Source: Eledone cirrhosa
Lineage: Eukaryota
Direction of reading: 5' to 3'
NCBI GenBank assembly: GCA_964016885.1
Contig: OZ024741.1
Location: 116,994,001-117,058,000, forward strand
Length of the DNA: 64,000 bases
Shown: positions 122 to 57,735 of the stretch, in pieces
How the letters are laid out: every line of letters begins with the position of its first letter
Numbering within the stretch: the stretch's first letter is position 1
Position numbers and translations under genes: made by a program
The notes under the pieces: model-generated
Databases searched by the model: none
Told to the model about the DNA's origin: nothing
What the model saw: only the letters and a program-made list of their open reading frames with translations

Positions 122-246
122 CAGTTATTAACATATGTTTCATTGGCTAGTATGTGGTTGAATGTGTCTAAAAATCGCTATCTGCAATGATGCTGTGACA
201 CTCGATTTTAGATACTGCTTATACCAGTCAAATTATCAAAATACTG
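122..246 (-). ncRNA. Type I hammerhead-like fold, U3-A8 core variant, long stem II
   Basis: Minus strand: cagtatt-TTGATAA-t-ttgactggtat...atactagccaa-t-GAAA-CATATG-TT-aataactg. Stems I and II pair imperfectly; stem III is palindromic. Confidence 0.55.
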
Positions 247-1263: not shown

Positions 1264-1336
1264 ACATATATATATAAGGATCATCCTTCCATGTTGAAGG
1301 GTCTTTGTCGAGGAAATCGGTACTGATAGAAAATCT

Positions 1337-1795
1337 CTACCGTGATCCCCGCCAGAAATGAATTCAAAAATGGCTAAGCATTATCACGTGGTTAGTAGTC
1401 AAGGTAGAAGGTTGTGATTGGTTGCCAGGCAGCGAGTAGGCTGGTTGCCAGAAAGCGCAGCCAGATACTATATATTTTATCTAATCATTCTTCAAACTTG
1501 CAATTTTATATATAGCTCTGATTAATAATTATTTGATTAATTAATTCTTTCATTGAACCACACCGTGAAAGGTAGCCACACTCATATATGTATCTGTTAC
1601 TATGTCTAAATATATACATATATCCCTATGAATTTAATATATACTCCCGTAAGGTAGAGTAACACTTTAGGCAGTATCTGGCTGCGCTTTCTAGCAACCA
1701 GCCTACTCGCCGCCTGGCAAACTTCTACCTTGACCACTAGCCACGTGATAATTTTAGCCATTTTTGAATTCATTTCTGGCGGGGATCACGGTAGA
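1337..1795. repeat. Inverted repeat, ~130-bp arms, ~200-bp spacer
   Basis: ~1337-1469 (ctaccgtgatccccgccagaaatgaattc...gccagatact) is the reverse complement of ~1673-1795. Confidence 0.9.
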
Positions 1796-1818
1796 AATTT
1801 TAGTCCAAACTCGGGGTG

Positions 1819-1902
1819 TCACTTGATAAGCTCCAAGCCCCGTGGATAAATCCAGGATCGGATATATCCGCAAAAAAGGAGCGAAACTGCCGGCAGTCGG
1901 GA
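1819..1902 (+). ncRNA. Type I hammerhead ribozyme, U3-A8 core variant
   Basis: tcac-TTGATAA-gctcc...ggagc-GAAA-CTGC-cg-GCAG-TC-ggga: 5-bp stem II base, stem III ACTGC/GCAGT, GUC cleavage triplet; stem I weak. Confidence 0.7.
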
Positions 1903-2186
1903 GTAGAGGAATTTTGGCAAAGTTTATATGCATTTTTTCTTCTAACTTATATTTTAGACCTAACTCCGTTTAGTTGATTATTTGTGTAGTCAATTTCTAC
2001 CGGCTAAAAGGGATGACAAGATACATTTTATCTGGCTGTCCCTCGCGGAAAATAGTCTGTATCATTTGTCTATTATTTCTTCAGTTACATTTTAAACTTA
2101 TAGCCTCGTTTAAATGATTATTTATGTGCTTGATTTCTACGGACTAGGGAGAGGAAAGACTGTATATATTTTATCTTCAAACATGC

Positions 2187-2236
<50 letters not shown>

Positions 2237-4125: not shown

Positions 4126-4270
4126 ATAAAAACACTTGAGTGCATTAGAGTCAAACACACTCGTCGCATTAGAGAAATGACAGTACAAGAGATAGCTCAA
4201 TGTAATCAAACAGAGCCGAAAAAATTATATAAATCAACAAAGAAGCCTTTAATACATTAAAAATCTTTAA

Positions 4271-4315
4271 TCGCTGACAATGTTTCGTCCCAGTAATTAG
4301 GACTCTTCACAGCAA
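4271..4315 (-). ncRNA. Type I hammerhead fold with C3G mutation (probably inactive)
   Basis: Minus: ttgct-GTGAAGA-gtcc-taattactg-ggac-GAAAC-att-GTC-agcga. Confidence 0.65.
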
Positions 4316-4983
4316 GGAAAAGACAAAAATTATCAACGGCTAGAACAAGCCAAAATTCAGAAGAATAGAGAAATAGAAAAATAGAAATTAAAAGTTACAT
4401 TATAAGATATAATATGCAGGTAATATAAAAACAGGATAAGGAGGCAAGGTCTAGGATGTTGCGACATATTTAGATTTCAGGTAACTAGGAGAGGGCACTT
4501 AATTACTAATGGGTAAAAATTTATAAAATTTATAACACACCCGATAAAATGTAAAGAAGGATATTTCGGAAAAATTATCCAGGAAACACATGTCAAACCT
4601 AATAGGGTACATTGGTACATACAAACTATAGGGCAAGAGAGCAAGCAAACATTAAAATAGCCACGTTAAAAGTACAATATATGTCCAATACTCGAAATAC
4701 AACATAATAATATAATCAGAGAAATAAGATATAAAAAATATAATATAATATACAATACAATGCAATATATAATACAGAAATAAAATTTAATATATATATA
4801 TACACACACACTCACACACATATATATACACACACATATACACATTTACACATACACATATTAACACAAATATATATATATATGCACTACTACCAACGTA
4901 CCATGCAAAGTCAACATAACATGTATAAAAACATAACGTATACCACAGGGTAAAAAATAATACCATAAAATAAAATAAAGTAT

Positions 4984-5055
<72 letters not shown>

Positions 5056-5889: not shown

Positions 5890-6050
5890 TTTCCAACGAA
5901 TGCTCCAATTGATTCAATAAACAGAACTGTTTGCTCGTGGAATTAAAATGTAAGTGACTGAGCATTCAACAGACACAGGCACTCTTTATGTAGTTTTCAG
6001 GGAAATTCGGTGTGGCACTGTGTGACAAGACTGGGACCTGGAATTATAGA
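5890..6050 (-). mobile_element. Old SINE-like repeat family B fragment
   Basis: Reverse complement resembles ~37450-37610 and ~53245-53390. Confidence 0.5.
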
Positions 6051-6137
6051 TACAACTCATTTTTACCAGAATGAAGCAACGATACTTGCTGGAGGACAAA
6101 TCTCGTTCCCCGGTCCAGTTATCGAATTATATATATA

Positions 6138-9100
6138 TCATCATCATCCTCATCGCCATTTTACGTCCGCTCTTCCCTGCTTGCAAGGGTGGGACGGGTC
6201 TTATTCAGCACAGCATCTCTCCACTTGTCACAGTCCTTCGTCATCTCCACCGTGAGCTTCAGCGATCTGAGGTCTGTTCTCACCACCTCCGCCCATGTTT
6301 TTCGTGGTCTACCTCTACCACGTCTTCCTTCAACTGGCATTTCCTGGCATTTCTTCACCCATCGGTCATCATCCATGCGGATCACATGTCCATACCACCT
6401 CAGTCTCCTCTCTCGCACACTACATTCTATCCCTTTCAGACACAGTTTCTCTCTCAGCACATTCATGCTGGGTCGTTCACGCACATTTACACTGCACATC
6501 CAACGGAGCATGCTTGCCTCATTTCTCTCCAGCCGTCACATATCCTCTGCAGTTGTTGCCCATGTCTCACTACCATGCAGCATCGCGCTCCTCACACAGG
6601 CATCATATAACCGGCTTTTCGTACCCTTCTTCGTTAGCAGAGGAAGCAGCTCCCTAAACTTCTTCCAACCCGTCCTTATTCTAGATACTATGGCCTCGGA
6701 ACACCCCCCTCCCATGCTAATCTGATCTCCTAGGTACCGGAAGCTATCCACCACTTCTATAGTACCCGCCTGCATTTGAAAAATATGTCTATCAATGCGT
6801 CTTCTACTGTCTAATTTCCCTGTACATCTACTGCATACGTATTTCTCCCTACATGTTAGTTTGCCTGCTATCCCGCTACATCTCTTGCGTACCCAGGATC
6901 TGCATTGTGTGCATTTTATAGAATTTATGCCCGTTCCTTTTCTGCATATCGAACATGGCCATTTCCCTGATGGAATCAGAGTTTTGTCCTCTTTTCTACT
7001 CATCAACACTTTTGTCTTAGCTAGGTTCACTCTCAGTCCTCTTGCTTCCAACTGCCGTTTCTATAGCCATAATTTATTTTCTAGCTCCTCTACTGATTCT
7101 GCTATAAGAACCAAATCGTCAGCATAGAGAAGTTCCCATGGACAGCCAGTCTTAAACTCCTCTGTTATGGCTTGGAGGATTATATTGAACAAGAGCGGGC
7201 TGAGGACCGAACCTTGATGTACTCCTAATTGTATCTGGAATTCCTCACTAAACTCCATTCCTACCCTGACTTTACTGACAGTACCTCTGTACAAAGTTTG
7301 CACTGTCCCCACAAGCCATTCCTCAACACCTAGTTTCCTTAGGGACCACCAGATGACAGATCGGGGTACCCTATCAAAGGCCTTCTCTAGGTCAACAAAG
7401 GCTAAGTATAGTGGCTTATTTTTCTCTAAGAACCTCTCTTGTAATTGTCTCACCAAGAAGAGGGCATCTGTTGTACTCTTCCCAGGCACACAACCAAACT
7501 GCATCTCATCTAGTTTGACCCTTTCTCTAATTAGTTGTGCTAATATCCTTTCTGCCACTTTCATAACCTGATCCATCAGTTTTATACCCCTATAATTGCT
7601 CCTCTCCAGAGCATCCCCTTTACCTTTGTAGCAATTTATGAGAATACTGCTGCACCAGTCTTTGGGTATGACACCAATATATAGCCTGATTGATGATGCG
7701 TGCAACCAGTTTAGTGCTTACGTCCCCTGATGCCTTCAGCATCTCAGCAACTATTCCCGATGGTCCAGCAGCCTTACCATTTTTCATTTCCTTAATCGCC
7801 TCTTGGACCCTATATTCGTCAATCTCAATAGCTGGTCCCTCTGTCGGATCTACTAAGGGTAATTTCTCTCCCTCCCATTCGTTCTCCACATTCATCAGTC
7901 TCTCATAATGACATTTCCAGGCCTCCTTTTTCTGATCATTCGTGTTACTAAGTACACCGGCATCATTCCGGACACATTTATCTCCAACAACATCCTGATT
8001 TGCATTGACACACTGCCTTGCAATGTGGAACACCACACGCCTCTGATCTTCCCGTCGCAGAACATTGGCAAACCTCCTACTCTCAGCCTACCTGCGTGCT
8101 AAGTACACCTGACGTCTAGCTTCTCTCTTAGCGGCTGTATATCCTTCCCTACTCCCACCCTTTTCCCAAGCCTTCCATGCTAATCTGTTGTCTATAATGG
8201 CCTTATCTACTGTGCTGTTCCACCACCAGGTCACTCTCTCTCTGGTTGGAGCTCTGCTCCAGCCACAAGTTTCATCAGTAGCCTGCAGTAAGTTATCACG
8301 TAAGAAATTACAGTTATTATCTGTCATACGTCTCTAAATCGTCTTCTTTTTCGTCATATACATCTTGAAGGGCTTTCCTAAATTTGTATTTTAGTGAAAG
8401 GTCTTTTAGCTTCCAGACCTTTCTTCTCCACACCTTGTATGTCTCATTCCATCTCTTGCTTACTGAGATATCACTAACGACTAACCTATGCTGAGGGGTA
8501 CATTCTTCCCCAGGGTATGTCTTGGGATTAGACACTATCTGGCTGTCCCGCTGCCTAAATAGTAAGAAGTGAATCTGGCTTATGTGCTCACCAGATTTGT
8601 AGGTTATTAGGTGATTGGCAGGTTTCTGGAAGTTTGTGTTGCAAATAGTCAGTGTACTTGCATCGCAAAATTCAAGAAGTCTCACTCCTTCTTCATTTCT
8701 TGAGCCGTAACCGTGCCCACCATGTACCCCAGTGCAACCATCCCGGAGCTGTCCAACATGACTATTGAAGTCCCCTGCTAGCATAACGATGTCTCCGTCC
8801 TCTATCATTGCGGTTGTTTGTAAAAGTTGCTCGTAAAAGCAGTCTTTCTCATCTTTGCCTAGGCATGCTTGGGGAGCATAGGCAGAGATGATTGTCAGTA
8901 GTCTCCTGCCTACAGCTAATCTAAGCTTAATTATTCGATTACTAACTCGAACTACCTCTATTGTCTTACTGATCCATCTCTCAGCCAGGAAAATGCCTAC
9001 TCCCTCTAACCCAGCATCCTTACCTACCCAGAAAAGCTTATAGCTTAGATGTTTGCCTACGACTAGTCTCGCAGAGGCACCTCTCCATCTCACCTCTTGC

Positions 9101-9430
9101 ACGCAGCACACATCCACATGCCTTCTCTCCAGCATCTCCGCTATTTCAGCAGATCTACCTCTGAGAGTGCCAGCATTAAATGTTGCAACTCTGAGATGCG
9201 ACATCTTCATATTTTGTTGTTGTTCCTATCTATTTATTGCTGAGCTGATAAGCGTTTTGGCATTGATACACTGGTTGGATGCCCTTCCTAACACCAGTGC
9301 CACTTTACAGCATGGACTGGGTGCTTTTATTTGTGTCACCAGCACTAGAGAGGATGTCTTACTAGACTCCAGGGCCCTCTCTACCCCTCCATTTTACAGC
9401 ATGGTCATAAAACAAAATCCACTTATTGAC
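6138..9430 (-). mobile_element. Near full-length RTE-clade LINE, decayed
   Basis: APE endonuclease (ATFNAGTL, QEVRW, SAYAPQ, GDFN, QHRLV) at 8317-9210; RT (FVDLEKAFD, HQGSVLSP, LLYADD) at 7061-7705; PHD-like CSIC..CTQC..CSRC insert; RRLRWYGHV tail; (GAT)n 3' tail at ~6138. Confidence 0.95.
6161..9210 (-). pseudogene. RTE APE-RT polyprotein broken into six ORF pieces by stops/frameshifts
   Basis: Collinear ORFs 8317-9210, 8088-8327, 7620-8036, 7061-7705, 6536-7051, 6161-6511. Confidence 0.9.
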
Positions 9431-9598: not shown

Positions 9599-9672
9599 CC
9601 GTCAGTACTGATACAAAATAAAAATCATGTCAACTGTTGACTTTTCCCAGTCCAGTTCAGTTTTTATATAAT

Positions 9673-9851
9673 TGTGTCTACGTTAGGCACAAGGCCAGCA
9701 ATTATCCAGTGCATTACTGGTACTTTATTTTATCGACCCCGTAAGGATGAAAGGCAAAGTCAACTTCGGCGGTATTTGAACTCAGATCGTAAAGGGGCGT
9801 AACTATGCTGGAAAGCATGGCGTCCGACCCTCTACCGATACTGCCAATCCA
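9673..9851 (-). mobile_element. SINE family A, full length, 22-bp target-site duplication
   Basis: tccagttcagtttttatataat at 9651-9672 and 9852-9873; A-box-like TGGCAGTATCGG and B-box-like GTTCAAATACC on the minus strand. Confidence 0.9.
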
Positions 9852-11678: not shown

Positions 11679-11732
11679 GTCGCGTTGGAAAGTAAACAGT
11701 TAGTCAAAGAAGGATTGTATAGCGTTATAGTA

Positions 11733-11990
11733 ATAATTGTTTCTACTTTTGGCACAAGGCCAGCAATTACCCCAGTACATTACTGGTACTTTATTTTATC
11801 GACCCCGTAAGGATGAAAGACAAAGTTAATCTCGGCTGTATTTGAACTCAGACCGTAATAACGTTATAGTAATAATTGTTTCTACTTTTGGCACAAGGCC
11901 AGCAATTACTCAGTACATTACTGGTACTTTATTTTATCGACCCCATAAGGATGAAAGACAAAGTTAACCTCGGCTGTATTTGAACTCAGA
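11733..11990 (-). mobile_element. Two tandem 5'-truncated SINE family A copies
   Basis: ~138-bp unit repeated head to tail. Confidence 0.85.
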
Positions 11991-12453
11991 CCGTAATAAC
12001 GTTATAGTAATAATAATAATTAGCAATGTTGCACACGAAAAAGAAAAGACAACGAAATGCGTTGGACGAATGAACAAAAGCATCTACTTTCCTCATTGCT
12101 AGACAATGCAATTTCGTACATAAGGGTGGTATAGCATAATATTGAACCCAGGCAGCACATATAATCAAGATGGTGCCGCAACAGGAACACAATCTAATGA
12201 CTGAAACTAGGAAAGAATAAAAAATTATACATTTCCCTCCCTTTCCCCGTGAAATCTGTTATTTTGTGCGTTTCTTATAGTAATGTTCGTTACTCGCTTC
12301 ATTCTCTTTTCACATTCTTTAAATCCTTATTAAACAACGAAAGTGATTAGCTTATTAGCTAAACACTTTCGTTGTTTATAAACTCTGAAGATCATAAACA
12401 TGTTATTTACAGCCATTGCATTCAGCACAATACCATAGCATTATTCTAAAGAG

Positions 12454-12634
12454 ATTGGATTGGCAGTATCGGTAGAGCGTCAGATATGCTTTGCAGCATA
12501 GAGTTATGGCCCTTTAAGTTCTGAATTCAAATCCCACCGAGGTTAACTTTGCCTTTCATCCTTACGGGATCGATAAAATTAAGCACCAATAATGCACTGG
12601 GGTAATTGCTGGCCTCGTGCCAAAAATAGAAACA
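12454..12634 (+). mobile_element. SINE family A (tRNA-like head), full length, 14-bp TSD
   Basis: A box TGGCAGTATCGG at 12461; B-box-like gaattcaaatccc; TSD attattctaaagag at 12440-12453 and 12635-12648. Confidence 0.9.
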
Positions 12635-13184
12635 ATTATTCTAAAGAGTTTCTGTAAGTATATTCAGTCGAATTAACTGATAATGTTGCTAAGCATATCG
12701 TAAAAAATTTCTCATAGAAAATCGCGAACCATAGTTTACAGAAAAACCAATTCTGATAGATACATCTAGCAGTTTTAAACATTTAAAGTGGTTCAAATGT
12801 CCGCTTTGTAACTCGTGACGTGCTGGGATTCGATTCATACGTATATGGTATGTCGTTACCAAATTCTTAGTGCCTTTTTAATTGTAAGCAAATATACTTC
12901 ATGAAACTTTATGAAATCTTTCTTTGCCAGAATATGTATTAGCTTTCTTAATCGTAACGTATTCATGACACACATATGCATTTTCAGCAGTTAGCATCAT
13001 ATTGTAGTTCGTGTATTTATCTTAGTGCCATATTATGATATGTGTACGGCTTCCATAATTAAACATCTACTCTTTTTAGAAATTCTGTATATTATGGATA
13101 TATCCTGTGTTAATGTTTTCTTACCCGGTTTTGTTCTGTAGTGTGTAGCGTAGTGTGATAGAAAGCTGTCCCCCATATATACGG

Positions 13185-13428: not shown

Positions 13429-15274
13429 ATGGCGGAAAAGATTGCAGAAATGTCTGCCATTAGCTCTGCCACGCCCCCCAAGTCTGAAGAACAAAAAATA
13501 ATTACAACAAAAGTAGACAATGAAACAAACAAAGAAAATGAAAAAACAAATGTTAAGGAAAATGAGCAAACAGAAAACAAACAAACAGAAAATAATACAA
13601 ATAACAACAGGGCAACTTTCGCCCAGAAAACAAAACAATCCATTACATACACACCAATTGACCTAACTGCCGCCAGAGAAAAACTGGCCGAAGCAAAGAA
13701 ACACATTGTTTTGGGGGAGAACGGAATGTTTTCCATTAACTCCCCCCCCCCCAGAATTCAAGAAAGCCAGAACAGAAAGCACAGTTCTCTACAGAACTAT
13801 ACTGAACCAGACAAGAAAGCCAGCACAGCCGAGCCAAATGGAAATAGAATTAGTCCTAAAAGACTATATGAAGAATATTCTCTTCATACGAAAGGACCGA
13901 CTCTATGGCAGCATTTCGGTCCTAACAAGAGACAAGGAAACGGCGGAGAAGCTTTCCCTAAGCCCACTCTCATCGACAACATATAGCTTCTATCCCTCCT
14001 ACATGGGTAGAAGAACACAGAGAGTAAAAGTAAAAACAATGCTGCCCACAATGGACTTCTGGTGGGCTATTGCTGGCTTCATAGATATGGGCGAAGACAC
14101 GATGCTGTCACTGGGGAAGGCAACTGGAGATGCGTTCCTGGGAATGGGCCTCGACATACTAGTCCAAATGAGGCCCGAAAGAATAGCACAAATCCCGGAT
14201 CGCATCTGGCTGGATGACCTTACCCCAATAGACATAATTGTAGAGGGGAGAAGACCAGCATGCTATTTATGCATGGAAAGGGGACACGTTAAGGCTAACT
14301 GCCCGAAACGTATCCCCCAAAAAGGACTATTGCCCACACCCACCACAAACAGTACACCAACACCACCCACCTCCAAAAATACACTAATACCACACACAGC
14401 AAACAAAATACAGACACCACCAACCACAAACACAACACAAACATCACCACCACCAGCACCAAACACAAGCACGACACAAAAATCACCACCACCAACCACA
14501 ACACAAACATCACCACCACCATCACCAACCACAAGCACGACACAAACATTACCACCACCACCACAAAACCCATTCCAAACAAATAATAAAAAAAACAGTA
14601 ACAAATCTACCCCTCCCGCAAAAAAAAAACAACCACACAACACGTCCCTCCCACCTAGCGCTGAAGAGTTTCCCCCAACTTCTGAAGAAGAAGGAGGAGA
14701 AGCCTTCAGACAAGTTAAAAGAAAAAAAAGAAAACACACACCCAGCACACCACAAATAACCCACACACAAACACCAACTCCAATCAAAAACACCCCACCC
14801 TCAACAAACAAAAATAAATCTGCGCCTCCCCTCTCCGAAACATTGACAGCATCACAAAAAAAGACGTTGCAATACACATATATAAATAAAGAAAACAAAA
14901 AACTGGTTAAATTAATAAACAATAACCCTATGGTGCAGACCGAAGGGCCAAACTTTATCTCAACAGAGAACTTCACCCATTTAAAAATGATAAAGGTCCC
15001 TCTGGACCTTTATCGTTCCTTAAAAGAACAATTTAGACGGGACGTGAGCCCCCCCTGTTTAAAACCGTTGAATCGCGTCCTCTTGAAAGATTTCCCCATA
15101 ACCGCCCCTCTCCCTGACACAACTCCAAATACCCCAACCCCACCACACACGTGTACCCCCACACCACCACAAAACATCCCTCCACCCAACACACCTGATG
15201 CCATGGAAATTACGCAACCCGGAGAGGTAAGTGCTTTTCTTTCTTCACTTTCAACACCAAAACAGATCAATTGA
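13429..15274 (+). CDS. Tx1 ORF1 (nucleic-acid-binding, CCHC knuckle); one frameshift in a C11 run at 13742-13752
   Basis: ATG at 13429; CYLCMERGHVKANC knuckle; Pro/Thr-rich linker; homologous to ORF1 remnants of copy 2. Confidence 0.85.
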
Positions 15275-18200
15275 GAGTTGGCTGTTTGAACGCGCGTGGC
15301 CTGGGCTCAGCTTGGAAGCAAGCAAAGCTTCTAAGTGACCTCAGGTCACAAAGTATAGATGTGATGGTTGTTTGCGAGAGTCGGATCAGCAGCGTGAGAC
15401 AGCTGGCGCCCGCCTTCGATGACTTTGAGATGCACGCATCTCTCTGTCAACCCGGAGGCGGGGGGGGGGGTAGTTGCCGTACTGCTGGATAAACGTCTGA
15501 CTCTCGACGTACAGATTGTTCACTCGGACCCGGGGGGTCGATTACTGGTGCTGGACGTCGGAGGCGGTGAAGGCGGGGCTTTCAGACTGGTCGGTCTTTA
15601 TGCTCCCTTCGGGGCGGAAAGAGCCGACTTCTTCCAGCGTCTGGAGACTTTTCTAGGAACGTCGCGTTCCCTGCTTTTAGTGGGGGACTGGAATGGAATC
15701 CTAGATGCGCGTTGGGACTATGCAGGGGCATGTCCCGATAGAGGGGGGTGTAGCAGCCTCAAGGGGTTACTCGATCGATTCGACCTGGTCGATAGATTTC
15801 GACTAGATTGTCCAACTGCGCCAACCTGGACCTGGGCAAACCGCAGTGGACAATCTAGATCGTACCTAGATAGGTTTTTGGTTAGGAGTAAGGATAGGGA
15901 CGTATTTAGTTGTCCAGAACTGATCATGGTTGGCTATTCAGATCACAAATTAGTGACCTGCGTGGTCAACCTTGATAGAACGCATAGACAGGGTTCCGGC
16001 TACTGGAAGATGAACTTGTCCTTACCGACAAAGAAAGATTACAGAAACCGGATTAGTAGCTTAGTTAAGATGCGGTTGACGGGAGCGATCGTCAACAGTA
16101 GGTGGTGGGTATCTCTAAAGAGAGAGATTAGAGTAAGTTCGATAGGTTACAGTAAGGAACTAGCGGCGAATAGAAATAGGAAGGAAAGGGAGTTAACAGA
16201 TAAACTAGAAGAGGCGATTAGGAGCGGAGACGTAGCCAGAGTGTTAGCGACGAGAACGGCATTGAGCCAGTTCTTTGACGCGAAGCACGAAGGCTGCGTT
16301 GTCCGAAGTAAAATACGTGCTTTAGGAAACGAGGGGACCAAAGCTGTTAGCTGGGCCCGCGTGACAGAAGCCAAGAGTGGGATTAAATCCACCATTCGGT
16401 CTTTGCGAGACCAGGATGGACGGGTGATCCTTGAACCTGAGCGAATGTGCGAGACCTTTCAAAGGCACTTTGCTCGACTGTTCGGAGGTGGCGGGGGGCC
16501 TGACGGGGATGTGGACTTCGGTCCATACCTCGACGGTCTACCGCGTCTTTCGAGCGGCGAAGCGGAGTGCTGCGAAAGGCCAATCACAGCCACTGAAATC
16601 GGGGAAGCGCTCAGCCAATGCAGCAGACGCAAATCCCCGGGTCTCGATGGTCTACCATACGAACTTTATTTAGCTATGCCGGTCTTGTTCTCCGAACTCC
16701 TAGAGGCTGTCTATTGCAACTGGCAACAGAACGGGAGAATTCCCTGTTCCGTGACCAAGGGCGTGGTCACGCTAGTGAGGAAGGAGGAGAGCAAGGGGGA
16801 CGACTTAAGTAACTTTAGGCCCATAACTCTGCTGAATGCAGAGTTACAGATTTTGGCCAAGGTGTTGGCGAAGAGGTTGGCGCTTGTGGTGGGTGGTTTG
16901 GTGGGAGACGCGCAGACATGCGCTATCCCGTCCAGGTCCATTCACGACAACCTCCACCTCATGCGATACATCATAGAGAGGGTTGGCTACGAACCCGGCT
17001 TTGGTGGGGCCCTGATCAACTTGGATCAATCTAAGGCGTTCGATAGGGTCGACCATGGTTACCTGGATGCGGTGCTAGCGGCGGCGGGCTTCGGACCCGT
17101 TTTCAGGGGCTGGATTTCTGCCATGCACAGTGGCAACATCTACTCTAGGATTAAAGTAAACGGCTACCTCTCGGAGCCGTTTCAAATCACCCGGTCCATC
17201 AGGCAGGGGTGCCCCCTCTCCTCCCTTCTGTACGTATTGACTCTCGAGCCACTGCTGCGGAAGTTGGAGTTGCTGCGGGGCATACCCCTGGAACCGGGAT
17301 TGCACAAAGCGGTCTCGGCCTATGCCGACGACGTAACAGTAATGGTGGCGGACGCCTCGGAAATCGGGGCGATCGCCACCCTACTGGAGGAATACGAAAG
17401 GCTGACGGGGGCTAAGCTGAACCAGGACAAGTCAGTCGGTTTGCAACTCGGAACGTGGAGGGGCAAACCGATGCCGTTAGACGGTGTCGTCGGGCGGTGG
17501 ACGGAGGGCCCGGTGAAGCTGCTCGGGGTCTGGTTCGGACCGGACCTCCAGGTGGAGAAGAATTGGTGCGAGGTGACGAGCAGGGTGTTTGCGCTGACCC
17601 AGAAGTGGGCCAAGTGCAAACTATCACTGAAAGGTCGGGCGGGGGTGACGAACGCTTACATAGCGTCCGTCATCTACTACCGCCTGACCGTCGTGCCTTG
17701 CCCCAAGGAAAAGCTCACCATCATGGAACGCATGCTCTTCCAGTTCCTCTGGAAGAAGCGGCCTCCCATGGTGAGGAGATCCATCTGCTGCCAGCACCCT
17801 TCGAAAGGAGGGCTGGGTATGCCGTGGCTGTTGATGCGTAGGCACGCATTGAGGCTACGGCATCTACAGGTATTCCTCAACGGTCAGCCGGTGTGGGCCC
17901 CGTTTGTGAGGCGAGCCTTCCCACAGCTCGTCTCGCTCACCGAACTGCAATCCTGGGTGAAGCAAAGACCGAGAAAACTGGGCAACTGGCACACCGAGTG
18001 TGCCCAGGCGCTCACGGCTATCTGGCAAGCGGACCCGACTGTCAGTGGAGAATCCACCTCGACATTCTATAGAGGGTTGGTGGCTAGCAGGGGCGACGAC
18101 ACCCTTGGAGAGTCGCTAGGCATGGAGGAGGACGAACTGGCCAGCCTGTTCGGTAGAACTTTCGGCCCGGGACCCATGGACAACTTCCAGAGGTCCCTAG

Positions 18201-18703
18201 CCTGGCAGTGTTACCGGGGGGCTCTGCCCGTTCGAGAAAAGCTCTACAGACACGGGCGCCCGGGCAGGGATCCCGTGAAAAAGATCTGTCCCAGATGCGT
18301 GCGCGACGAGGAAACCGTTGCGCATGCACTGGTACACTGCCCGGGCGTTGCCGATCTGTGGGGCTACGTCGAACGACTGCTGTCGCGTGTGGCGCCGATT
18401 CGATTAACCGCCGAGTCTGTGGTGAACATCAAGCCGCCTCCTCCCTTCAGAAATGAAGCAGAGGCGGTCTTTCTGTGCGTAATAGCCATGATGAAAGAGG
18501 TTGTGTGGTGGACGCGCCTGAAAGGTCTGAGGTCGGGTGACTTTCTCTCCGGCCATCACCTGGTTTACTTCTTCCGATACCACTTCGGAAGAAGAATCAG
18601 GATGGAGAGAGAAGTGCTTGGTCCCAGACAGTTTTATGAAAGGTGGGTGAAAGAAGCGAGAATGGCCCGTGTAAATGGGCCTTCTCTCTACATTGTTCTG
18701 TAG
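15271..18703 (+). CDS. Tx1 ORF2: APE endonuclease + reverse transcriptase + CCHC; one frameshift in a G11 run at 15460-15470
   Basis: CLNARGL, GDWN, YLDRF, SDH (APE); SPGLDGLP, FRPITLLN, LDQSKAFD, RQGCPLS, AYADD (RT); CPRC..ETVAHALVHC. Confidence 0.93.
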
Positions 18704-18954
18704 GTGAAGAAGTGAAGAGGAAAGGGGGAGCGCCTCCTCTCTGGGCTTCCCCCGCGAAAAGAGTTGCACACTTTTCGGGGGTATGTGCAATCCGAACACA
18801 ATCCTCCCTTTTGAGGACTTTTTATTGTTATATTATTATTGTTATTCCTTTTTTCTTTACTCGATTTATGTAAACTCCCCCACTGTGTAAATGTCCCCTC
18901 CTTTTGTGCCCTCGTGGCAAATAAATAGAAATTTATCTATCTATCTATCTATCT

Positions 18955-21900
18955 GAGATAGTAGGATGTACACAAATTAGCTGGTAAGTTTCTGCCAATT
19001 TATTTATAAAAAAACAGAAATTCTTGTAAAAAAAAAAAACACATTGTTTTGTAGATTAACCCCCCAGGCTGAATTGTCAGCTGGGTGGCAATCTCATTTT
19101 TCGCCCCCACAGGGGTGAAAATTTAAATTTAAATTAATTTGAAAAACTGTTAAGAAAATTTTTAATATTTTGCCAACAGCAATGGCTAGCTTACAAGGAA
19201 CGCTAGCGAACGTTGAGGAAGGAAAAAGAAAAGAAGAAATAGATTTTAACGTTGCTACGAGCTCTGCCTGTATCAATGTAGCTAAAAACAAAGTCTTATT
19301 TCACGAAAGTGAAGTAGACAACACAAACAAAATTGAACCACACAGTGTACAACCAAAAACAACAGAAAAAACAATTGACACAACTAAAAACGAAAATACC
19401 GACAACCACAACAACAACAACACAAAAAAAAAACTTTTACAGAAACAGTCACAAATAGTAATAATATGGATTTCAACGTTACCTCAAACTCCGCATGTAT
19501 TGGTGTCACTATGGAAGACAATATCAACAACAAGGTATTGTTTCACGAAAGTGAAATATATAATAAAAACAAGATTGAACCACACAGTGTACAACAGATA
19601 CCAAAAACAACAGAAAAAACAACAGAAAATAAAACGATTGACACAACTACAAACGGAAAAACCGACAACCACAACAACACCAATAACAACAACACAACAA
19701 AAAAAAACTTTTGCGCAAACAATCATGAACAAACAAGAGTTCAAGGTTCTCGATATCTCCAATACGAGACAGATGCTCTCTGAAGCAAAGGAGTTTATCA
19801 TATTCGGTGAAAACGGTGGGTTTAAAATAAACTCACCCCCAGAAATTCGTCTTGAAACACTTCGAAGGACAGTTACCTTCAGAACTGATTCAAATGAAAC
19901 AAAACGATCAGCATTCCCCAATCAAGGGGAAATTGAGGCAACCTTGAAGGAGATATTGCTAAACATTGACTTTATGCAGAGGGCCAAACAGTATGGGTGT
20001 ATTTCGGTGCTCCTCAAAAGCGAGGCCCTCGTACAAAAATATTCAGTGACACTAATACTGTCAAAAAAATACACCTTTTTCCCTACATACCTGGGAAAAA
20101 GGACTCAGAAAATCAGAATTGCGAACATACTAATATTAATATTAATATTTGGTGGATATGGGCAGGTTTTTTAGAAGAGAGACAAGACACCATTCTCTCC
20201 ATCAAGAAGTCAACCAGCCACACGTGGTCTGGTACAAATTTGGAGATTCTGGTGCAAATGAAGCCGGAGAGAATCTCCAAAATACCTGAAAAAGTGCTGG
20301 TGGACAACAACAGCCACATAAACATTTCGGTTGAAGGGGGATGTAACAGCACAGCATATCTAAAGGCCTCCTGCCCTTTACAGACACATTTAAAAAAAAT
20401 ACTGTTACCAACACCAACACCAAAACAACCACCACCACCACCACAACAATAACAACAACACACAAAACAAGCAAACGCACCAAAACAAACAGCCACTCAA
20501 CCAACAACAGCAGGAAAAATACAAACAACTCCCCCGAAGAACACAGTCTTACTCCATCCCACTCCATCCAACACTGCCACACACACACACACACACAAAC
20601 ACACCATCACCACACAACATACCCCTACCGCAAGCTCCTGATCATGAATCATAGTCAGACGAGGCTACTTCTTCATCTCCAAGTGAAGATGAAGGATAGC
20701 CTCGAAAATCAAAAAAACAAAAAAAAAGGCACCACAAAGCCACAAAAACAACAATCACCAACCCCAACACACAACCACCGACACAAACAACAACACAAAC
20801 AACACCACATTCAACCCCCCCCCCCCCAGCAAAACAAATACCAACACCACCCAAACACAAGCACCCAGACGAACAACAAACTAAAACAACACAACAAAAA
20901 CACAAACAACAATACGCATACATCAACACAAACAACAAGAGTTTGATGGAGGTCATCTCCCAAATCCTCAAGGTGGGGACGGAGGGCAAAACTTTCGTTA
21001 AAGCAGAATCGTCTGCACACCTCAAACTGATAAGGGTTTCTATGGAAACATATAGCGAACTAAAAACAAAATTTTCGCAGGACGTGGGCAACCCCTGTCA
21101 AAAACCCATAAACAGCGTCCTGTTAAAATGTTTCCCCACTCCACCCAACACCCCCACCAGCACCAAAATGGAGATTGAACAACCCGATCTCCAGGAAATG
21201 AAAAGGTAAGTGCACCTTTTCGTCCCTTTTCGCCAACTCTTCTCCACCAACATGGCCAATTTACGAGTTGGAAGCGTGAATGTGCGTGGCCTAGGGATGC
21301 CCTGGAAACAGGGCCAACTTTTAAACGACCTTAGGTCATACGGTATGGATGTGATAGCCATCACCAAGTCCAGGATCCACAACAGGCAGCAACTAACCCC
21401 CATCTTCAATGACTTTGCGATCTACGCATCTCTCTGTCAGACAGGAGGTGGAGGGGGAGTGGCTGTCATGTTTCGGAAAAACCTGGACGTCGAAGTACAG
21501 CAAGTACACTTGGACCCGGAGGGTAGACTGGTAGTCCTAGACGTGAACAGTGTTGGAGGTGGAGCCTTCATACTGGTGGCCGTTTATGCCCCGACTGGGC
21601 AATCGCAGCCAGACTTCTTTAAGCGTCTAGAGTCTTTTCTGGGAACGTCTCGCTCCTTGCTTTTAGTGGGGGACTGGAAAGGCATCCTAGACACACAATG
21701 GGACTATGTAGGATCATGTCCCAGTAGAGGGGTGTGCAACAGCCACAAAAATTTAATCGGCAATTCCAACTGGCTGATAGGTATCGACTAGATTTCCCGA
21801 CTGCACCACAGTGGACGTGGACAAACCTTAGCGGGACATCTAGATCGTATTTAGACATGTTCTTTATTAGAGAGAGAGAGAGAGAGACAAGGAGATGTTA

Positions 21901-24848
21901 AGCTGTTCACAAATGCACATGGTTGCCTATTCAGACCACAAACTAGTCATCTGCATAGTCAACCGTGATAGAATACATAGACGTAAAGTCTACAGTGAAC
22001 GGATAAGTAGATTTGTTAAGCAACAATTGACGGGAGCCATCGTCAACAACAGATGGTGGTGCTCCCTCAAGAAAGCAATTAGAGTAGAGTCGATAGACTT
22101 TAGTAGAGAGTTAGCCTTAGAGAGAAACAAAACAGAAACGGAACTAGTAGCCAAGGTAGAGGAGGCGCTTAGGAGTGGAAACGTAGCTAGAGTGCTAGCA
22201 ACGAGAACGGCACTGGACCAGTTCTTCGGCGCGAAACACGAAGGCTGCGTGGTCAGAAGTAAATCACGTGCTCTAGGAAATGAGGGAGCGAAAGCTGTTA
22301 GCTGGGCCCGAGTGGCAGAGGCGAAAAGTGGCAACAAGTCCACGATTCGGTCTTTGAAAGACCAAAACGGACGCGTGCTATTTGACCCCAAGCGGAGGTA
22401 CGCGGCCTTTCAGCGGCATATTGCGCAACTGTTCGGGCAGAGTGGCGGTACGCAATGGACTTCGGTTTATACCTCGACGGCCAGCCGCGTCTCTCGAACA
22501 TGGACGCCGAGTTCTGCGAAAGACCGATCATAGCCACTGAGATACGGCACGCTCTGGGCCGCTGCGGGAAATGCAAATCACCCGGTCTAGATGGTTTACC
22601 CTATGAGTTTTACATAGGCATGCCGGACTTGTTCTCTGGCGTCCTCGAGGCCGTCTACTGCAACTGGCAGCAGAACGGGAGAATTCCGAGTTCTGCAGGC
22701 AGGGGTGTAGTAACGCTGATCAGGAAAGACGAGAACAAGGGGGACGAACTAAGCAACTTTAGGCCCATAACTCTGCTCAACACAGAGTTAAAGATTTTGG
22801 CCAAGGAGTTGGGAACGAGGTTGGCGCTTGTCATCGAGAACCTGGTAGGGAAATTGCAAACGTGTGCAATCCCGACCACGTCCATACACGACAACCTCCA
22901 CCTCATGCGATACTTTATAGAGAGGGTGCGGTGTAAACCCCGCTTCGGTGGGGCTCTGATCAATTTAGATCAGTCATCGATACTTAGAAGCGGTTCTCAA
23001 GGCGGCCGGTTTCGGACCCGTCTTCAGAGGCTCGATCGCCGCAATGTACACCAACATCTGCTCGATGGTGAAGGTGAACGGCTATCTATCGGAGCCGTTC
23101 GCAATCACGCGTTCCATCCGACAGGGATGCCCTCTCTCCTCCATTCTGTACTTACTGACTCTAGAGCCACTGCTGCGGAAGTTGGAGCTGCTGCAGAGCA
23201 CTCCGTTAGAACCGGAACTGCGGAAAGCGGCGTTGGCTTATGCCGACGACGTGACGGTAATAGTGTCGGAAGCCTCCGAAATTGGTGCGATCGGCAACTT
23301 ACTGCAGGAATACGAAAGACTCCCAGGAGCAAAACAAAACCCGTACAAGTCTATTGGTTTGCAACTCGGAACGTAGAGAGGCAAACCGATGCCGTCCGAC
23401 AGCGTCGTCAGACGCTGGACGGACGGACCAGTGAAATTGCTCGGGGTCTGGTTCGGTCCGGACCTCCATGTGGAGAAAAACTGGAACGAGATCACGGCCA
23501 AGGTATTTGCGCTCACCCAGAAGTGGGCAGAGTGCAAACTATCCTTGAAAGGTCGAGCGGAGGTGTCGAACACTTTCATAGCGTCCGTCATCTACTACCG
23601 CTTGACCGTCGTGCCTTGTCCCCGTGAACACCTCACCAAGATGGAACGCATGCTCTTCCAGTTCCTTTAGAAGAAGCAGGCTCCACTGGTAAGGTGATCC
23701 GTCTGCTGTCAGCACCCTTCCAACGGAGGGCTGGGAATGCCGTGGCTGATGATGCGCAAGCATGTGCTGAGGCTACGGCATCTCCAGGTATTCCCCACCG
23801 ACCCCCAACCGGTGTGGGCACCGTTTGTGAGACAGGCCTTCCCGCAACTTGTCTCGCTGACGGAGCTGCAGTCCTGGGTCAAGCGGAGACCAAAGAAGAT
23901 GGGCGCCTGGCGTTCAGGCGCTCACAGTCCTCTGTCAAGCGGGCACGGCAATCAGTGAAGACTCCATTTCGACATTCTTTAGAGGGTTAGTACGTCACAA
24001 GGCCGAGGACGTGCTCGGAGATACTCTAGGCTCCGAAGATGACGAACTCACCAGTCTGTTGGGTAGGACTTGCCGCCCGGGACCTATGGACAACTTCCAG
24101 AGGATCCTGGCCTGGCAGTCCTACCGAGGAGCTCTACCAGTTCGTGACAAGATCTACAGGCATGGACGCCCCGTCAGGGATCCTTCCAAGAGGACGTGTC
24201 CAAGATGCGGGCAGGACATTGAAAGCGTCCTGCACGCAATTGTACACTGCCCGGGTGTAACCGACCTGTGGAACTATGCGGAACAACTGCTGTCGCGTAT
24301 GGGACAAATCCAGTTGACTGCCGAGTCCATAGTAAGAGTCAAACCGCCAACTTCTTTCAAAAACGAAAGAGAGGCGGTTTTCCTCTGTATAGTGGCTATG
24401 GTGAAAGAGGTTATATGGGGTACGAGATTGAGAGGACTGAGGACAGATGCCTCTCTCTCCGGACAACAACACATTCCATTCTTTAGGTACCACTTTAGAA
24501 GAAGAATCAGAGTGGAGAGAGAGGCACTGCACCCCAGTAAATTTACTGAAAGGTGGGTGAATGTGGCAAAAATGGCCCGAGTGATTGGGCCTTCTCTGTA
24601 TATAAACCTGTAGGTTGAAGATGAGAGCAAAAGGAAGAAAGGAGCACTTGCACAACACACTCCTGAAGTTGAGGTTTGTTTTATCGACGGGGTATTAAAC
24701 AACCCATTTGTGGCGCCTCCCCCTTATTGGGGATTTCGATTGTTATATTTGTTTGTTTCATATTTTTACACGATTGTATGTAAAATCCCCGACATGTCTT
24801 TGTTTTTATCCCCTTTTCATGTGCGCCCTTGTGACTAATAAAGAAAGA
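18955..24848 (+). mobile_element. Tx1 copy 2, full-length but decayed, divergent subfamily
   Basis: ORF1 remnants 19170-21209; ORF2 remnants from MANLRVGSVNVRGL (21252) to 24613 with YADD and CPRC..HC; many stops; ends in (TATC)n. Confidence 0.92.
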
Positions 24849-25840: not shown

Positions 25841-25862
25841 TTCAGCAAACAAGGGGAGATAA

Positions 25863-25907
25863 AGCTGACAGAGCTCTGTTTCGTACTTTTTGGTATTTAT
25901 CAAAGCT
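25863..25907 (-). ncRNA. Type I hammerhead, U3-A8 core
   Basis: Minus: agct-TTGATAA-atac-caaaaa-gtac-GAAA-CAGAGCTCTG-TC-agct; palindromic stem III, GUC triplet; first stem II pair mismatched. Confidence 0.65.
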
Positions 25908-26347: not shown

Positions 26348-26442
26348 AACTTTGCCTTTCATCCTTATGGGGTCGATAAAATAAAGTACCAGTAATCTAC
26401 TGGGTATTTGCTGGCCTTGTGCCAAAAGTAGAAACAATTATT
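26348..26442 (+). mobile_element. SINE family A 3' half
   Basis: Matches ~12545-12640. Confidence 0.85.
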
Positions 26443-26577
26443 TTATTATATACATTTCTCATTTACTTGTGCGCACAAAACCGATATACGAATGTGCGTG
26501 TGTGTGTATAAATGTTCTTGCATTTATATTTGAGTTTAAGTTCGTGTGTGTATTGGAGTATGCTTATATGCTTGTAT

Positions 26578-28091: not shown

Positions 28092-28150
<59 letters not shown>

Positions 28151-28438
28151 ATTATGTCCTTAGAATCATTTGATAAGATATATACTGAATTTCCTCTCCT
28201 AATTAACATAATCAACCACAAAAAAACCCAATTAAACCAGGCTATAAGATTAAAAGCCACCTGTGAAGAAATAATAGATAAATAAACGATAGCCATTTAT
28301 TCGCGGTCAGCAGCCATAGAATATCTACCCATCAATTCAATAGCACGTGGAAATCGATTAAATATATCGTCAACCATACACAATTAGGTATAAAATTAAA
28401 GTTAGAAGAAAAAATGGATATACACATACCAGGATTAC

Positions 28439-28520
28439 GTTTCTACCCTTAGGGTTTCGTTCGCTCCTCGGAAAAATCCTATCAAGGATAAATTCTCGAG
28501 CTTCGAACTCATCAGGAAAC
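28439..28520 (-). ncRNA. Type I hammerhead ribozyme, canonical core, extended stem II
   Basis: Minus: gtttc-CTGATGA-gttcg...cgaac-GAAA-CCC-taa-GGG-TA-gaaac; all three core-proximal stems Watson-Crick; GUA triplet. Confidence 0.9.
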
Positions 28521-28588
28521 AAACTCCCTTGGACAAAGATTTTTCTTAAATGATCCCCGCCAGAAACGAATTCAAAATGGCTAAGAAC

Positions 28589-28619
<31 letters not shown>

Positions 28620-44630: not shown

Positions 44631-44916
44631 GGGTGGATTTACATGAATAAAGGGTATTCTTTTGCGGGATAACAATTTGTTTTAAATTTTATTAATTTCT
44701 AGATTGATCACGAACAGAATATTTTTTTCTTGTATTATTGAAATTGCTCTGCAGTCTGATATTGTGAAGGCGAGGAGGACAAGCATCGGCTGTTTTATTT
44801 TAAGTACGAAAATCCAGTATTTCATGGCATTATAATATTACAGAGTATTAAGAAGGAACATAAACAAATTTAAATAATAATAATGACATTTTATTTATTC
44901 ATTTATTTATCTATGC

Positions 44917-44968
<52 letters not shown>

Positions 44969-44972
<4 letters not shown>

Positions 44973-47110
44973 GCTGATCGTATAAGGCGCTTTGAAAAAC
45001 GATCTAGATTCTATAAGGACAATAATATGTTCAAAAACAACCAAAGAAACTTCTACAGAAAAATTGGTAAGTCAACAATAACTGCTAAATCAATACCACC
45101 CAAGGAGGAAGTGCAAGAATTCTGGGAAAAGATCTGGGCCGAAGAAAAAGTTCATAACATACATGCCCCATGGATAGACAGACAAATGAAAGATACAGCT
45201 CACCTTGAGGAACAAACATGGGAAAATATAACAGTTGAACAGTTGCGCTTGGCTCTAAGAAAAAACAGCAAATGGAAATCCCCAGGAAAAGACAAAATAC
45301 AAAACTTTTGGATAAATGCCTTCACAGAGTCTCATGAGCTGTTAGCCCAACTTTACAATGAAATAGTTAAGGAGCCAGAAAAGATACCTTCATGGGTAGT
45401 TAACGGCATTACATTCCTGCTTCCGAAGAATGATGAGACAAACAATCCCAAAAATTACAGACCGATAACTTGCTTGACCACAATGTATAAAATTTTAACA
45501 TCAGTCCTAACTGAATACACATATGACCACCTGATAACAAATGACCTATTTCCCATTGAGCAGAAAGGGTGTAAACGAGGCTCATATGGCTGTAAGGATC
45601 AGCTTCTGGTTAACAAAATGATACTGAAAGATTGTCATAATAGACACAAAAATCTATCGATTGCTTGGATAGATTATAAAAAAGCATTTGATAGTTTGCC
45701 ACACAGTTGGATTGAAAAATGTTTAGAGATTTTCAAAGTATCCCCCGTTGTCAGGAGGTTTTTGTCATTCAGTATGAAGACATGGAAAACGACACTCCTT
45801 TTGAATAGTGAAACAAAATCACTGGAAGCTGGAGAAGTTAATATTAATTGTGGAATTTTTCAGGGTGACTCTTTATTACCGCTTTTATTCTGCATCGCAC
45901 TTATACCATTAAGTAAAATGCTCAATGAAACAAAACATGGATATAAAGTCTATGACAAAACCATTAATCACCTGTTTTACATGGATGACCTGAAACTATT
46001 TGCAAAAAATGATGAACAATTGCAAGGGCTATTATCCACTATGAAGCAGTTCAGTGATGACATTAAAATGGAGTTTGGACTAGATAAATGCGCCAAAGCA
46101 ACGTTCACCAGAGGAAAGCTGCTGAAGAGTTCAGACATTAATCTTGATCGGGGGAACGTGATAAGAGAACTTGATCAAGAAAAAACTTACAAATATCTAG
46201 GTGTTTGTGAAGGAGACGGAATCAAGCACTCGACAATGAGGGAAAGGATAAGGAAGGAATGTTACCGCAGAGTAAGAGCAATCTTAAGAACGGAATTGAA
46301 TGCAAGGAATAGGATCGATGCCATAAACACGCTTGCCATACCAGTAGTAACCTACAGTTACAATGTCATCAACTGGTCAAGCACAGAGATCCGTAGGCTC
46401 GATACAAAAATTCGAAAATTCTTAACCATGCACAGAATACATCACCCTAAGGCAGATATAGATAGAATATATCTCCCTAGGAAAGAAGGAGGACGTGGGT
46501 TAATCCAGTTAGACATTGCGTTGAAAACTGCAACAATTGGATTATCTACATATCTAAGGGAATGACATGATTGGATGATCAAACTCGTTTTGAAACACGA
46601 AAGCATCAAAAGATCATATTCCATTACAAAAGATGCACAAAGATACAGTAATGGACTACAAATTTCAGAAGTCCCATTTACTGCTGAAATGGAAAACACA
46701 GAAAAAGCAAAGCAGGTAAAAGTAACTGCAAAGAAAGAACTGCTACAGAAACTGGCTAAAAAATGGCAAGAAAAGCCTCTGTATGGAAAATACCCAGAGC
46801 GAGCTAACAATCCTGATGTTGACAAAACTTTAACCCATCAGTGGTTGGCATCCTCTGGACTGAAATCGGAGACTGAAGGACTGATTATATCAGCACAAGA
46901 TCAGTGTCTGCCAACAAAAAATTACTAAGCCAACATAATAAAAAATGGATGCAACCCATTATGCCGTGTATGCAAAAAACAACCAGAGACCATTGACCAT
47001 ATAATTTCAATGTGCAGTCCTATAGCTCCAACCGAATACCTAAACAGGCATGACAGAGCTGCACAATACATACATTGGATAATGTGTAAGCATTTTGACC
47101 TGCCCCAACG
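44969..47110 (+). mobile_element. R4/Dong-clade LINE copy A, truncated at both ends, starting at (TAA)n
   Basis: [65 protein letters not shown]; stops near 46565 and 46928. Confidence 0.92.
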
Positions 47111-50100: not shown

Positions 50101-50437
50101 ATGTGGCCTGCCCATTCGACACGAGAGTGCAAGAGAAGGAGAGGGAGAAAATTAACCGATACCAGGACTTAAAGTGGGAGGTAAAAAGGATTTGGAACTG
50201 CCATGAAGTCAAAGTGACCCCGATTGTCATAGGCGCACTAGGGACTATCTCAAAAAGTTTCCAGGGATGGTTAAAGAAAATTGGCCCCTTCACGCTTTTT
50301 GGAACGCTTCAAAAGGCATGCTTGCTGGGAACAGCAAGAACCCTCCGATACGTCCTGAATATCTGAGGCTGCAGGTAGTGGCTTGATATTCATTCCAACA
50401 AACTTTCCAGTTAACTAACATCAATGACTGAGACTCA
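47117..50437 (+). mobile_element. R4/Dong-clade LINE copy B (RT + CCHC + restriction-like endonuclease), ending in (GAA)n
   Basis: N-terminal GYRKRMHNIW..QKLAGQAR; HLLFMDD; [14 protein letters not shown]; [22 protein letters not shown]; several stops upstream of 48573. Confidence 0.94.
48573..50366 (+). pseudogene. Open C-terminal 597 aa of the R4 RT-REL polyprotein
   Basis: Continuous RT, thumb, CCHC and PD-(D/E)xK endonuclease motifs; upstream part disrupted. Confidence 0.88.
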
Positions 50438-54792: not shown

Positions 54793-54904
54793 AATAATTG
54801 TTTCTACTTTTGGCACAAGGCCAGCAATTAATCCAGTGTATTACTGGTACTTTATTCTATCGACCCTGTAAGGATGACAGGCAAAGTTAACCTCGGCAGG
54901 ATTT
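54793..54904 (-). mobile_element. SINE family A 3' half
   Basis: Same body as 543-711; a more diverged copy lies at ~51420-51605. Confidence 0.85.
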
Positions 54905-55125
54905 AAATAATGAAATACACACACACACGGACCCCCCCCCCCACACACACACATACACACACAACAATATATATATAAATAGATAGATAGGTAGATAGGT
55001 AGATAGGTAGATAGATAGATAGACTTATATATTGTTTATTATTTACAGGTTTTCTAAAAAATTCACCTACAATATTATAAAAGGGATTGATATAATTCAT
55101 CGAAATTTCTCGTGCCGTTTAGTGC

Positions 55126-56916: not shown

Positions 56917-57048
56917 AAATACTGACTGCTACTTCATCGTTGTTATACTAATACTCCGGAGTTCGCCGAGTACTCTATCCTACGTAGACTAGTGTCGGTT
57001 GAATATCTAACACATAATATACCAAACTATATATATATACATAAACAT

Positions 57049-57147
<99 letters not shown>

Positions 57148-57570: not shown

Positions 57571-57631
57571 TATTTTATCTGATGAGAGCGTACCAACATT
57601 TTGGTACCCTTGAAATATATATAATAAAATA
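57571..57631 (+). ncRNA. Type I hammerhead ribozyme, canonical core
   Basis: tattttat-CTGATGA-gagcgtacca-acattt-tggtaccctt-GAAA-TATATATA-ataaaata; perfect 8-bp stem I; AATAAA overlaps the 3' end. Confidence 0.82.

Positions 57632-57683: not shown

Positions 57684-57735
<52 letters not shown>

Follow-up and report, generated by a model that had tools for sequence, protein, structure and literature searches.

The two related hammerhead modules of the window (the whole 64,000-nt stretch of DNA that was analysed) are copies of one ~690-nt, ORF-less Penelope-type repeat that carries a type I hammerhead. The overall reading, which is probably the right one, is that of a protein-less repeat whose hammerhead likely cuts tandem transcripts and whose copies record the passage of the core pair 3-8 through the states U-A, U·G and C-G. 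The repeat is of a known kind, i.e., Penelope-derived, of the non-LTR retrozyme type and carrying a known core variant. U3-A8 in Penelope hammerheads has already been published (parts of PMC4209133 and PMC3088659), with ~1,300 U3-A8 hits in Schistosoma PLEs (PMC4209133, in part), and natural C3-G8/U3-A8 covariation is described as well (PMC3088659, in part). New are the wobble path documented by the copies, a pseudoknot predicted between internal loops, and evidence for selection at the level of the lineage. In a literature search that covered few subscription papers and no supplements, no U3·G8 subfamily, stepwise 3-8 path or description of this repeat family was found; supplements of PMC4209133, PMC3088659 and PMC7229834 may show such variants.

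A relaxed motif scan of the window gave hammerheads with the cores TTGATAA at 1823(+) and CTGATGA at 28515(-). The former has a 53-nt stem II region, GAAA, a palindromic stem III and a GUC site; in the latter the stem II region is 50 nt long and the site is GUA. The modules are identical in 95 of 153 alignment columns, and their homology spans 1754-2175 against 28584-28172 (~430 nt, 69%, E 7e-32). The leader pattern was matched 0 times in 100 shuffles of the sequence, and the backward-pattern controls also gave 0 matches genome-wide. The scan and the alignment thus bear out the sequence-only reading, made before this analysis, in that both modules are real and share a leader and long-stem-II hammerheads with these two cores. 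The ~30-35-nt spacer that was placed between leader and ribozyme is present too, but it is no plain spacer, as it contains a predicted distal stem I strand and a predicted pseudoknot strand; the 1819-1902 RNA proposed there for cleavage excludes this pseudoknot strand. The statement that the stems keep their pairing fails for stem I of the 1754 copy, where A1821·G1900 and G1818·G1903 are private mismatches (relatives read GTCTC/G[GA]GAC), so that 3/5 stem I pairs are kept. Other DNA runs show A1821>T at full depth and G1903>C at ~98%. The active fold of this copy lies 9.7 kcal/mol above the MFE (rank 7 of 47), and the MFE fold of the family B hammerhead is the active fold. From the established hammerhead consensus, the cut is predicted after 1898; in family B it is predicted after A28444. 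Positions 1805-1809 and 1913-1917 may form a distal stem I helix, for which 85% of cells are paired and double changes equal 0. The coordinates are collected in Table 1.

Table 1. Features of the two modules and of other elements, in window positions
Feature	Position	Strand	Remarks
Family A element	1469..2199	+	One ~690-nt unit and a partial head-to-tail piece (partial tandem); (TA)n end
Inverted 5'-truncated leader copy	1330..1469	-	Directly adjoins the family A element; Penelope hallmark
Conserved leader, common to families A and B	1754..1788	+	
Distal stem I 5' strand CCAAA	1805..1809	+	Predicted partner 1913-1917
Pseudoknot 5' strand CGGGGT	1812..1817	+	Stem I internal loop; predicted partner 1837-1842
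Stem I 5' strand GTCAC (family: GTCTC)	1818..1822	+	Private mismatch at 1821
Core U3-U4-G5-A6-U7-A8-A9	1823..1829	+	U3 = 1823, A8 = 1828
Long stem II	1830..1882	+	Base helix of 5 bp; internal loop with the predicted pseudoknot 3' strand (1837-1842); upper helix of 6-7 bp
G12-A13-A14, palindromic stem III (1886-1897), C17	1883..1898	+	C17 = 1898
Stem I 3' strand GGGAG (family: G[GA]GAC) and distal 3' strand (1913-1917)	1899..1917	+	Private mismatch at 1903
Family B element	28140..28589	-	5'-truncated at the leader; (TA)n flanks
Family B hammerhead	28439..28527	-	Pseudoknot strand 28527-28521, stem I, C3 = 28515, G8 = 28510
Short U3-A8 family	5079(+), 43721(+), ~61811(+), 63425(+), 57890(-)		Also at loci L311-L328
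Penelope-like ORF (RVT_1 and GIY-YIG, ~745 aa)	58970-61540	-	Inverted arms 56332-58109 and 61589-63342

Searches of the 3.0-Gb, microsatellite-rich genome gave 847 first-look candidates for family A, to which the forward module belongs, and 2,355 for family B, with 40 scored in each. Same-strand cores stand in tandem at spacings of 646-693 nt in five loci (L024, L160, L166, L181 and L293), with a unit length of 693 nt from L024. At least two head-to-tail units, each with a complete HHR, are thereby present in these loci, which is the retrozyme definition given in the part considered of bioRxiv 10.64898/2026.07.22.740005. The longest ATG ORF is 37-59 aa, so that the unit codes for no protein. 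The window element at 1469..2199 matches the natural tandem unit at 88% over 755 columns and that at 28140..28589(-) the natural B unit at 88% over 450 columns, while 1330..1469(-) is an 87% inverted repeat of 1673-1801 with a second leader match at 1352-1377. Of the long loci, 183 had enough flank to be judged: an inverted 5' piece is present in 56, 66 are longer than a single unit and the 3' side carries (TA)n in 150; their 3' ends cluster 360-390 nt past the core and their 5' ends are variable. The 5' truncation, partial tandems, inverted 5' copies and microsatellite targets seen here are the same features that are listed as PLE hallmarks in the relevant part of PMC8557442. A second 3' end near +510 to +520 occurs in 16/183 family A/B copies and might mark another site of initiation, comparable to the Penelope 'tail'. 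As to the ribozyme, the type I layout is found at the family level: the core reads N3-UGA-N7-N8-A...GAAA...UH with pairable positions 3 and 8, and three helices surround it, with stem I open. Neither module has a hammerhead match in Rfam at gathering score or up to E 10; such a match is not a defining feature, and the long stem II may fall outside the models. A mir-1246 match in Rfam was rejected (26 bits vs the cut-off of 70). The earlier expectation that strict CUGANGA searches miss these hammerheads was correct, and it extends to Rfam.

The Penelope-like element of the window carries a separate, AT-rich hammerhead of the C3-G8 type, at 62119(-) and 57579(+), which differs from that of families A and B, and the element shares no DNA similarity with them. 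Near the copies, an autonomous partner was sought with the protein of this element, and 2/310 loci match it, neither as an in-line ORF. Relatives of the element stand head-to-head at 27693(-)/27768(+), with the core CTGAAGA, and also at 31934(-). Just upstream of the leader (1670-1750) and of the 61811 motif (61540-61700) lies CACGTG/CACATG, and most family A/B copies have CCAATCA upstream of the leader, deleted in the window forward copy; these motifs are possibly an internal promoter. Seven near-identical B copies on C12 (17.03-17.49 Mb; L032-L035 and L037-L039), with ~60-kb spacing and shared flanks, are a tandem segmental repeat.

Further U3-A8 cores had been named at 122, 5076, 25863 and in the 43718 family. 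The motif at 5076 is confirmed and belongs to the same family as 43718, although the latter has GCAA for GAAA. This is a separate, short U3-A8 family (TTGAAAA, 4-bp stem II, palindromic ACCGGT stem III) with 24,417 exact-pattern matches genome-wide, and many of its copies form close inverted pairs. GCAA for GAAA (A13C) is found in 41 of the first 100 of these matches, i.e., a very large subfamily has spread with a changed core base. Only 111 of the 24,417 matches are non-A8, and the first 100 of these 111 all retain U3, for which reason covariation of 3-8 inside this family was rejected. The other U3-A8 sites do not, then, lend support to covariation: they belong to separate families, and in the 5076/43718 family the pair is fixed. 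A core does exist for the 25863 site, at 25903(-), but its first stem II pair is mismatched, and the motif at 122 fits only as a 239(-) core with a 91-nt stem II. Both candidates (129-239(-) and 25860-25903(-)) have a palindromic stem III, with the 91-nt stem II in one and the 10.1 mismatch in the other, and are plausible but imperfect single motifs. The region 4200-4985 looks like another Penelope remnant; its minimal hammerhead, in which the core at 4310(-) reads GTGAAGA (G as base 3) and stem III is tiny, is probably a damaged copy. The window also holds a SINE-like repeat of ~170 nt in at least seven copies (540-724, 9668-9792, 11719-12014, 12527-12640, 26349-26456, 54793-54919) and non-LTR retrotransposon ORFs at 6050-9225(-), 13667-24613(+), 44874-46565(+) and 47117-50366(-), among which 15398-18703 is an intact-looking endonuclease-RT ORF of 1101 aa preceded by one of 535 aa.

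With positions 3 and 8 left free in the search patterns, the family A pattern (n=47) gave C3-G8 in 11, U3·G8 in 13, U3-A8 in 22, U3·C8 in 1 and C3·A8 in 0 matches. The first 100 of 173 family A matches comprised 9 C3-G8, 14 U3·G8, 75 U3-A8, 2 others and 0 C3·A8, and the first 100 of 242 family B matches 93 C3-G8, 3 U3·G8, 1 C3·A8 and 3 others. From 100 fetched regions and the search loci, 204 A and 62 B copies were retained, a sample biased by exact patterns and best hits. Dropped were one false core, six near-identical C12 segmental copies, 16 and 5 profile hits with no recognisable core and 10/278 copies with <250 aligned columns, and two B-like rows were excluded from both sets. The 204 A copies are UA in 113, CG in 61, UG in 24, CA in 1 and other in 5 cases. 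Single changes as common as the double change had been named beforehand as counting against compensation; U3·G8 reaches such a frequency (24/204), but C3·A8 does not (1/204). With columns 3 and 8 excluded, the copies form a ladder-shaped tree with a length of ~0.9 substitutions per site, and along its spine the states follow in the order UA, UG, CG: U3-A8 up to 0.65, a U3·G8 block at 0.66-0.70 and then C3-G8, with SH-aLRT of 91 on entry to the block and 99 on the step to C3-G8. Within the block 16/19 copies carry U3·G8, far more than the private A>G rate of 1.3% would give (p 7e-28). In a side group 6/22 copies carry it (p 3e-7), which likely reflects a second origin that led no further. As a subfamily state, U3·G8 is real and inherited, and the key core pair likely changed in two steps, from U-A through the U·G wobble to C-G. 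Since both modules sit on one lineage, the double change between them is most likely about one historical two-step event. The U3-A8/C3-G8 covariation that was read from the two modules is consequently real as a double change, but it is not repeated. CpG decay was discarded as the cause of changes at position 3 or 8, neither of which is in a CpG in family A. It may be inferred that U3·G8 retains enough cleavage and that C3·A8 is not tolerated.

Selection on the fold is well supported. When master changes are taken from the commonest letter of each ladder bin, the nine invariant core bases show 0 changes, as opposed to 0.72 for each column of the unpaired flanks and 0.50 for each tail column (p ~0.01), and the 29 proposed pairs show 11 Watson-Crick switches against 4.1 expected (p 0.0006), p-values that are optimistic because the ladder bins are related and not independent. 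N7 changes twice and H17 once. Of all bin-pairs 334/346 are paired, and the 3-8 pair is pairable in all 12 bins. In 37 representative copies 90.9% of cells are paired, compared with 31-48% when the pairing is slid; pairs changed on both sides are not above shuffles in these copies (197/500), RNAalifold recovered only the three core helices and an unbiased scan for covarying columns gave G-U noise. The unchanged core suggests that self-cutting may have been selected while the element copied itself. The claim that these are selected ribozymes can therefore be kept for the fold, but selection most likely acted on propagating masters, and the 1754 copy is damaged.

The fold also includes a predicted pseudoknot, in which (C/T)G(A/G)GG(T/C), immediately 5' of stem I, would pair with GCCTC(A/G) of the internal loop of stem II. 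It reaches at least 4 bp in 236/266 copies, its median score is reached by 0/91 control windows, its outer pair went from UA to CG and back to UA, i.e., through two Watson-Crick switches, and family B has a 7-bp form. Such a pseudoknot of 5-7 bp would dock stem I on stem II. Most A bins have a palindromic stem III of 12 nt whose loop covaries from TCGA to CCGG, a feature that relaxes in late A and in B. A palindromic stem III with a covarying loop is as expected for a double-hammerhead fold, which self-complementary stems III would allow between tandem units. The neighbouring stem I pair is U-A in 18/19 copies of the U3·G8 block, compared with mostly U·G before and just after the block. One may speculate, from this one event, on permissive epistasis, the crossing having taken place while the stem I pair was Watson-Crick and the pseudoknot strongest. 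Active folds of family A lie at a median of 4-7 kcal/mol above the pseudoknot-free MFE, and a strict intact-junction filter was passed by 42/113 U3-A8 copies. The hexamer TAGTCC (1801-1806), similar to the 5' strand of stem I, is paired with the stem I 3' strand (1899-1905) in several family A MFE folds; this competing helix, in which no clear covariation was seen, is a possible cleavage-blocking off-state.

Whether the U·G state lay on a path from U3-A8 to C3-G8, on the reverse path or on no path at all can be weighed on copy decay and on the make-up of the block. The direction U3-A8 to U3·G8 to C3-G8 is the likely one, with good confidence, because copy decay falls along the ladder (5% to 2%). 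Counted as private changes over the 111 columns that do not vary in any group, decay is 0.051-0.057 at the far U3-A8 end, 0.038 in mid U3-A8, 0.035 in U3·G8, 0.029 in C3-G8 and 0.023 in B. Its correlation with the ladder is rho -0.41 overall, though only -0.23 over later bins, and the last A bin stands at 0.036. Best genome-wide matches rise likewise, through 87%, 93-94% and 94-95% to 98% (B). The opposite path, from C3-G8 through U3·G8 to U3-A8 with family B as outgroup, was implicit in the sequence-only reading; it is unlikely. In its favour, a root on B places C3-G8 first, the canonical state is C3-G8, and the later bins differ little in age (0.038 vs 0.029). However, decay is lowest in B and the C3-G8 subfamilies and highest at the far U3-A8 end, the opposite of what such a root would lead one to expect. 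An initial tree with its root on B (support 60) was set aside as showing a long-branch placement. Family B is nearest to late A subfamilies and joins inside the C3-G8 end in one 45-row tree; it sits on a 0.42 branch, the attachment of which moved between trees, and an AU p of 0.40 is a mere non-rejection of one C3-G8 clade. When intermediates linking late A to B were sought, further late-A and B subfamilies turned up and the 0.42 branch stayed unbroken. The change between the two modules most likely ran towards the canonical pair. It is highly improbable that the U3·G8 copies only mutated after insertion, or that they are mosaics joining the 5' half of a U3-A8 copy to the 3' half of a C3-G8 copy, with no replicating intermediate. 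Private U3·G8 does arise in 3/62 B and 2/64 late A copies, three U3-A8 copies lie inside the block, and 5' of the core the block mostly resembles the preceding subfamily; however, the 16/19 frequency far exceeds the private rate, and a simple mosaic is disfavoured because the block has its own diagnostic columns and a stepwise-type mix of earlier and later states 3' of the core.

As to how the preferred reading would work, a tandem or read-through transcript would be cut at the GUC/GUA site (here after 1898) into unit-length RNA, which would possibly be circularised, as in other animal retrozymes (PMC7229834, in part), and a Penelope RT/GIY-YIG protein would copy it into (TA)n. On this view it is the RNA of the propagating masters that would be under selection, and a copy such as 1754 would decay once inserted. 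Against it speak the folding gap of the family A active folds, the lower private deviation at core bases (given below with its confounding) and two further results: HHR mutants did not lower insertion by the Anolis Penelope protein in vitro (PMC11167929, in part), and A13C is common in an abundant family of related type, so that an intact core is not always needed for spread. The last two also favour the possibility that the hammerhead fold is kept for binding or priming by a Penelope protein, with cleavage dispensable and U3·G8 masters being catalytically poor passengers, to which the weak cleavage of PLE-HHRs (PMC4209133, in part) and the thriving of Naiad PLEs with no canonical HHRs (PMC8557442, in part) may be added. 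Nevertheless, not only the helices but also the unpaired catalytic bases are invariant while N7 and H17 vary within the allowed set, and the 3-8 tertiary pair is pairable in 12/12 bins, which leaves this possibility a rather small share of the probability. Least probable of all is that each genomic copy, 1754-1902 included, is a host-selected active ribozyme. Private core deviation is indeed 2.7% vs 5.4% at other stable columns, a difference confounded by the core filter and the A/U-rich core, but the 1754 copy has two stem I mismatches and its large folding gap, and most U3-A8 copies fail the intact-junction filter.

According to PMC8557442 (in part), it is unclear what hammerheads do in Penelope-like elements, and a much rewritten lineage that keeps its catalytic bases and helices argues that the ribozyme matters in vivo. 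Its subfamilies offer natural U3-A8, U3·G8 and C3-G8 RNAs in near-identical backgrounds, in which the fitness path of a tertiary pair is testable. CUGANGA descriptors and Rfam miss such motifs, and one U3-A8 family alone has >24,000 pattern matches here. Only tentatively, the repeat may be taken as a time-stamped record of an active site crossing via a viable U·G wobble with permissive epistasis, and as direct evidence from evolution that Penelope-type elements need self-cleavage to propagate in vivo, contrary to what was found in vitro; if true, it would be a ready-made series of natural intermediates.

Several known systems resemble this repeat. With animal non-LTR retrozymes, as described in parts of PMC7229834 and bioRxiv 10.64898/2026.07.22.740005, it shares protein-less, low-GC head-to-tail units with a type I hammerhead, the occurrence of monomers and dimers and a proposed Penelope derivation. 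However, its unit is ~690 nt, in comparison with 170-400 nt (PMC7229834) and 51-972 bp (the preprint), mostly truncated monomers with inverted 5' pieces take the place of long arrays, and its stem II is long. Chlamys non-autonomous PLEs, e.g., MRC1 (PMC8557442, in part), are likewise ORF-less, with pLTR-like partial tandems, head-to-tail insertions and microsatellite targets, but mostly lack hammerheads and have known autonomous partners, whereas none was found near the copies here. Hammerheads of Penelope pLTRs, among them the U3-A8 variant of Schistosoma (PMC4209133), have in common with the present ones the U3-A8 core, the enlarged helix II, the palindromic helix III and opposite-strand pairs 100-700 bp apart. 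Relative to the passages of that paper considered here, the repeat differs in its full 4-bp helix III with a palindromic loop, in a ~50-nt helix II with an internal loop, in the predicted pseudoknot and in a U3·G8 subfamily that links two Watson-Crick states. Pseudoknots between stems I and II are reported for ~40% of hammerheads and for all three types (PMC3088659, in part), and here the pseudoknot would join two internal loops; in the 'PK hammerhead' (PMC11300833, in part) it replaces helix II, which is a different architecture from that of the repeat.
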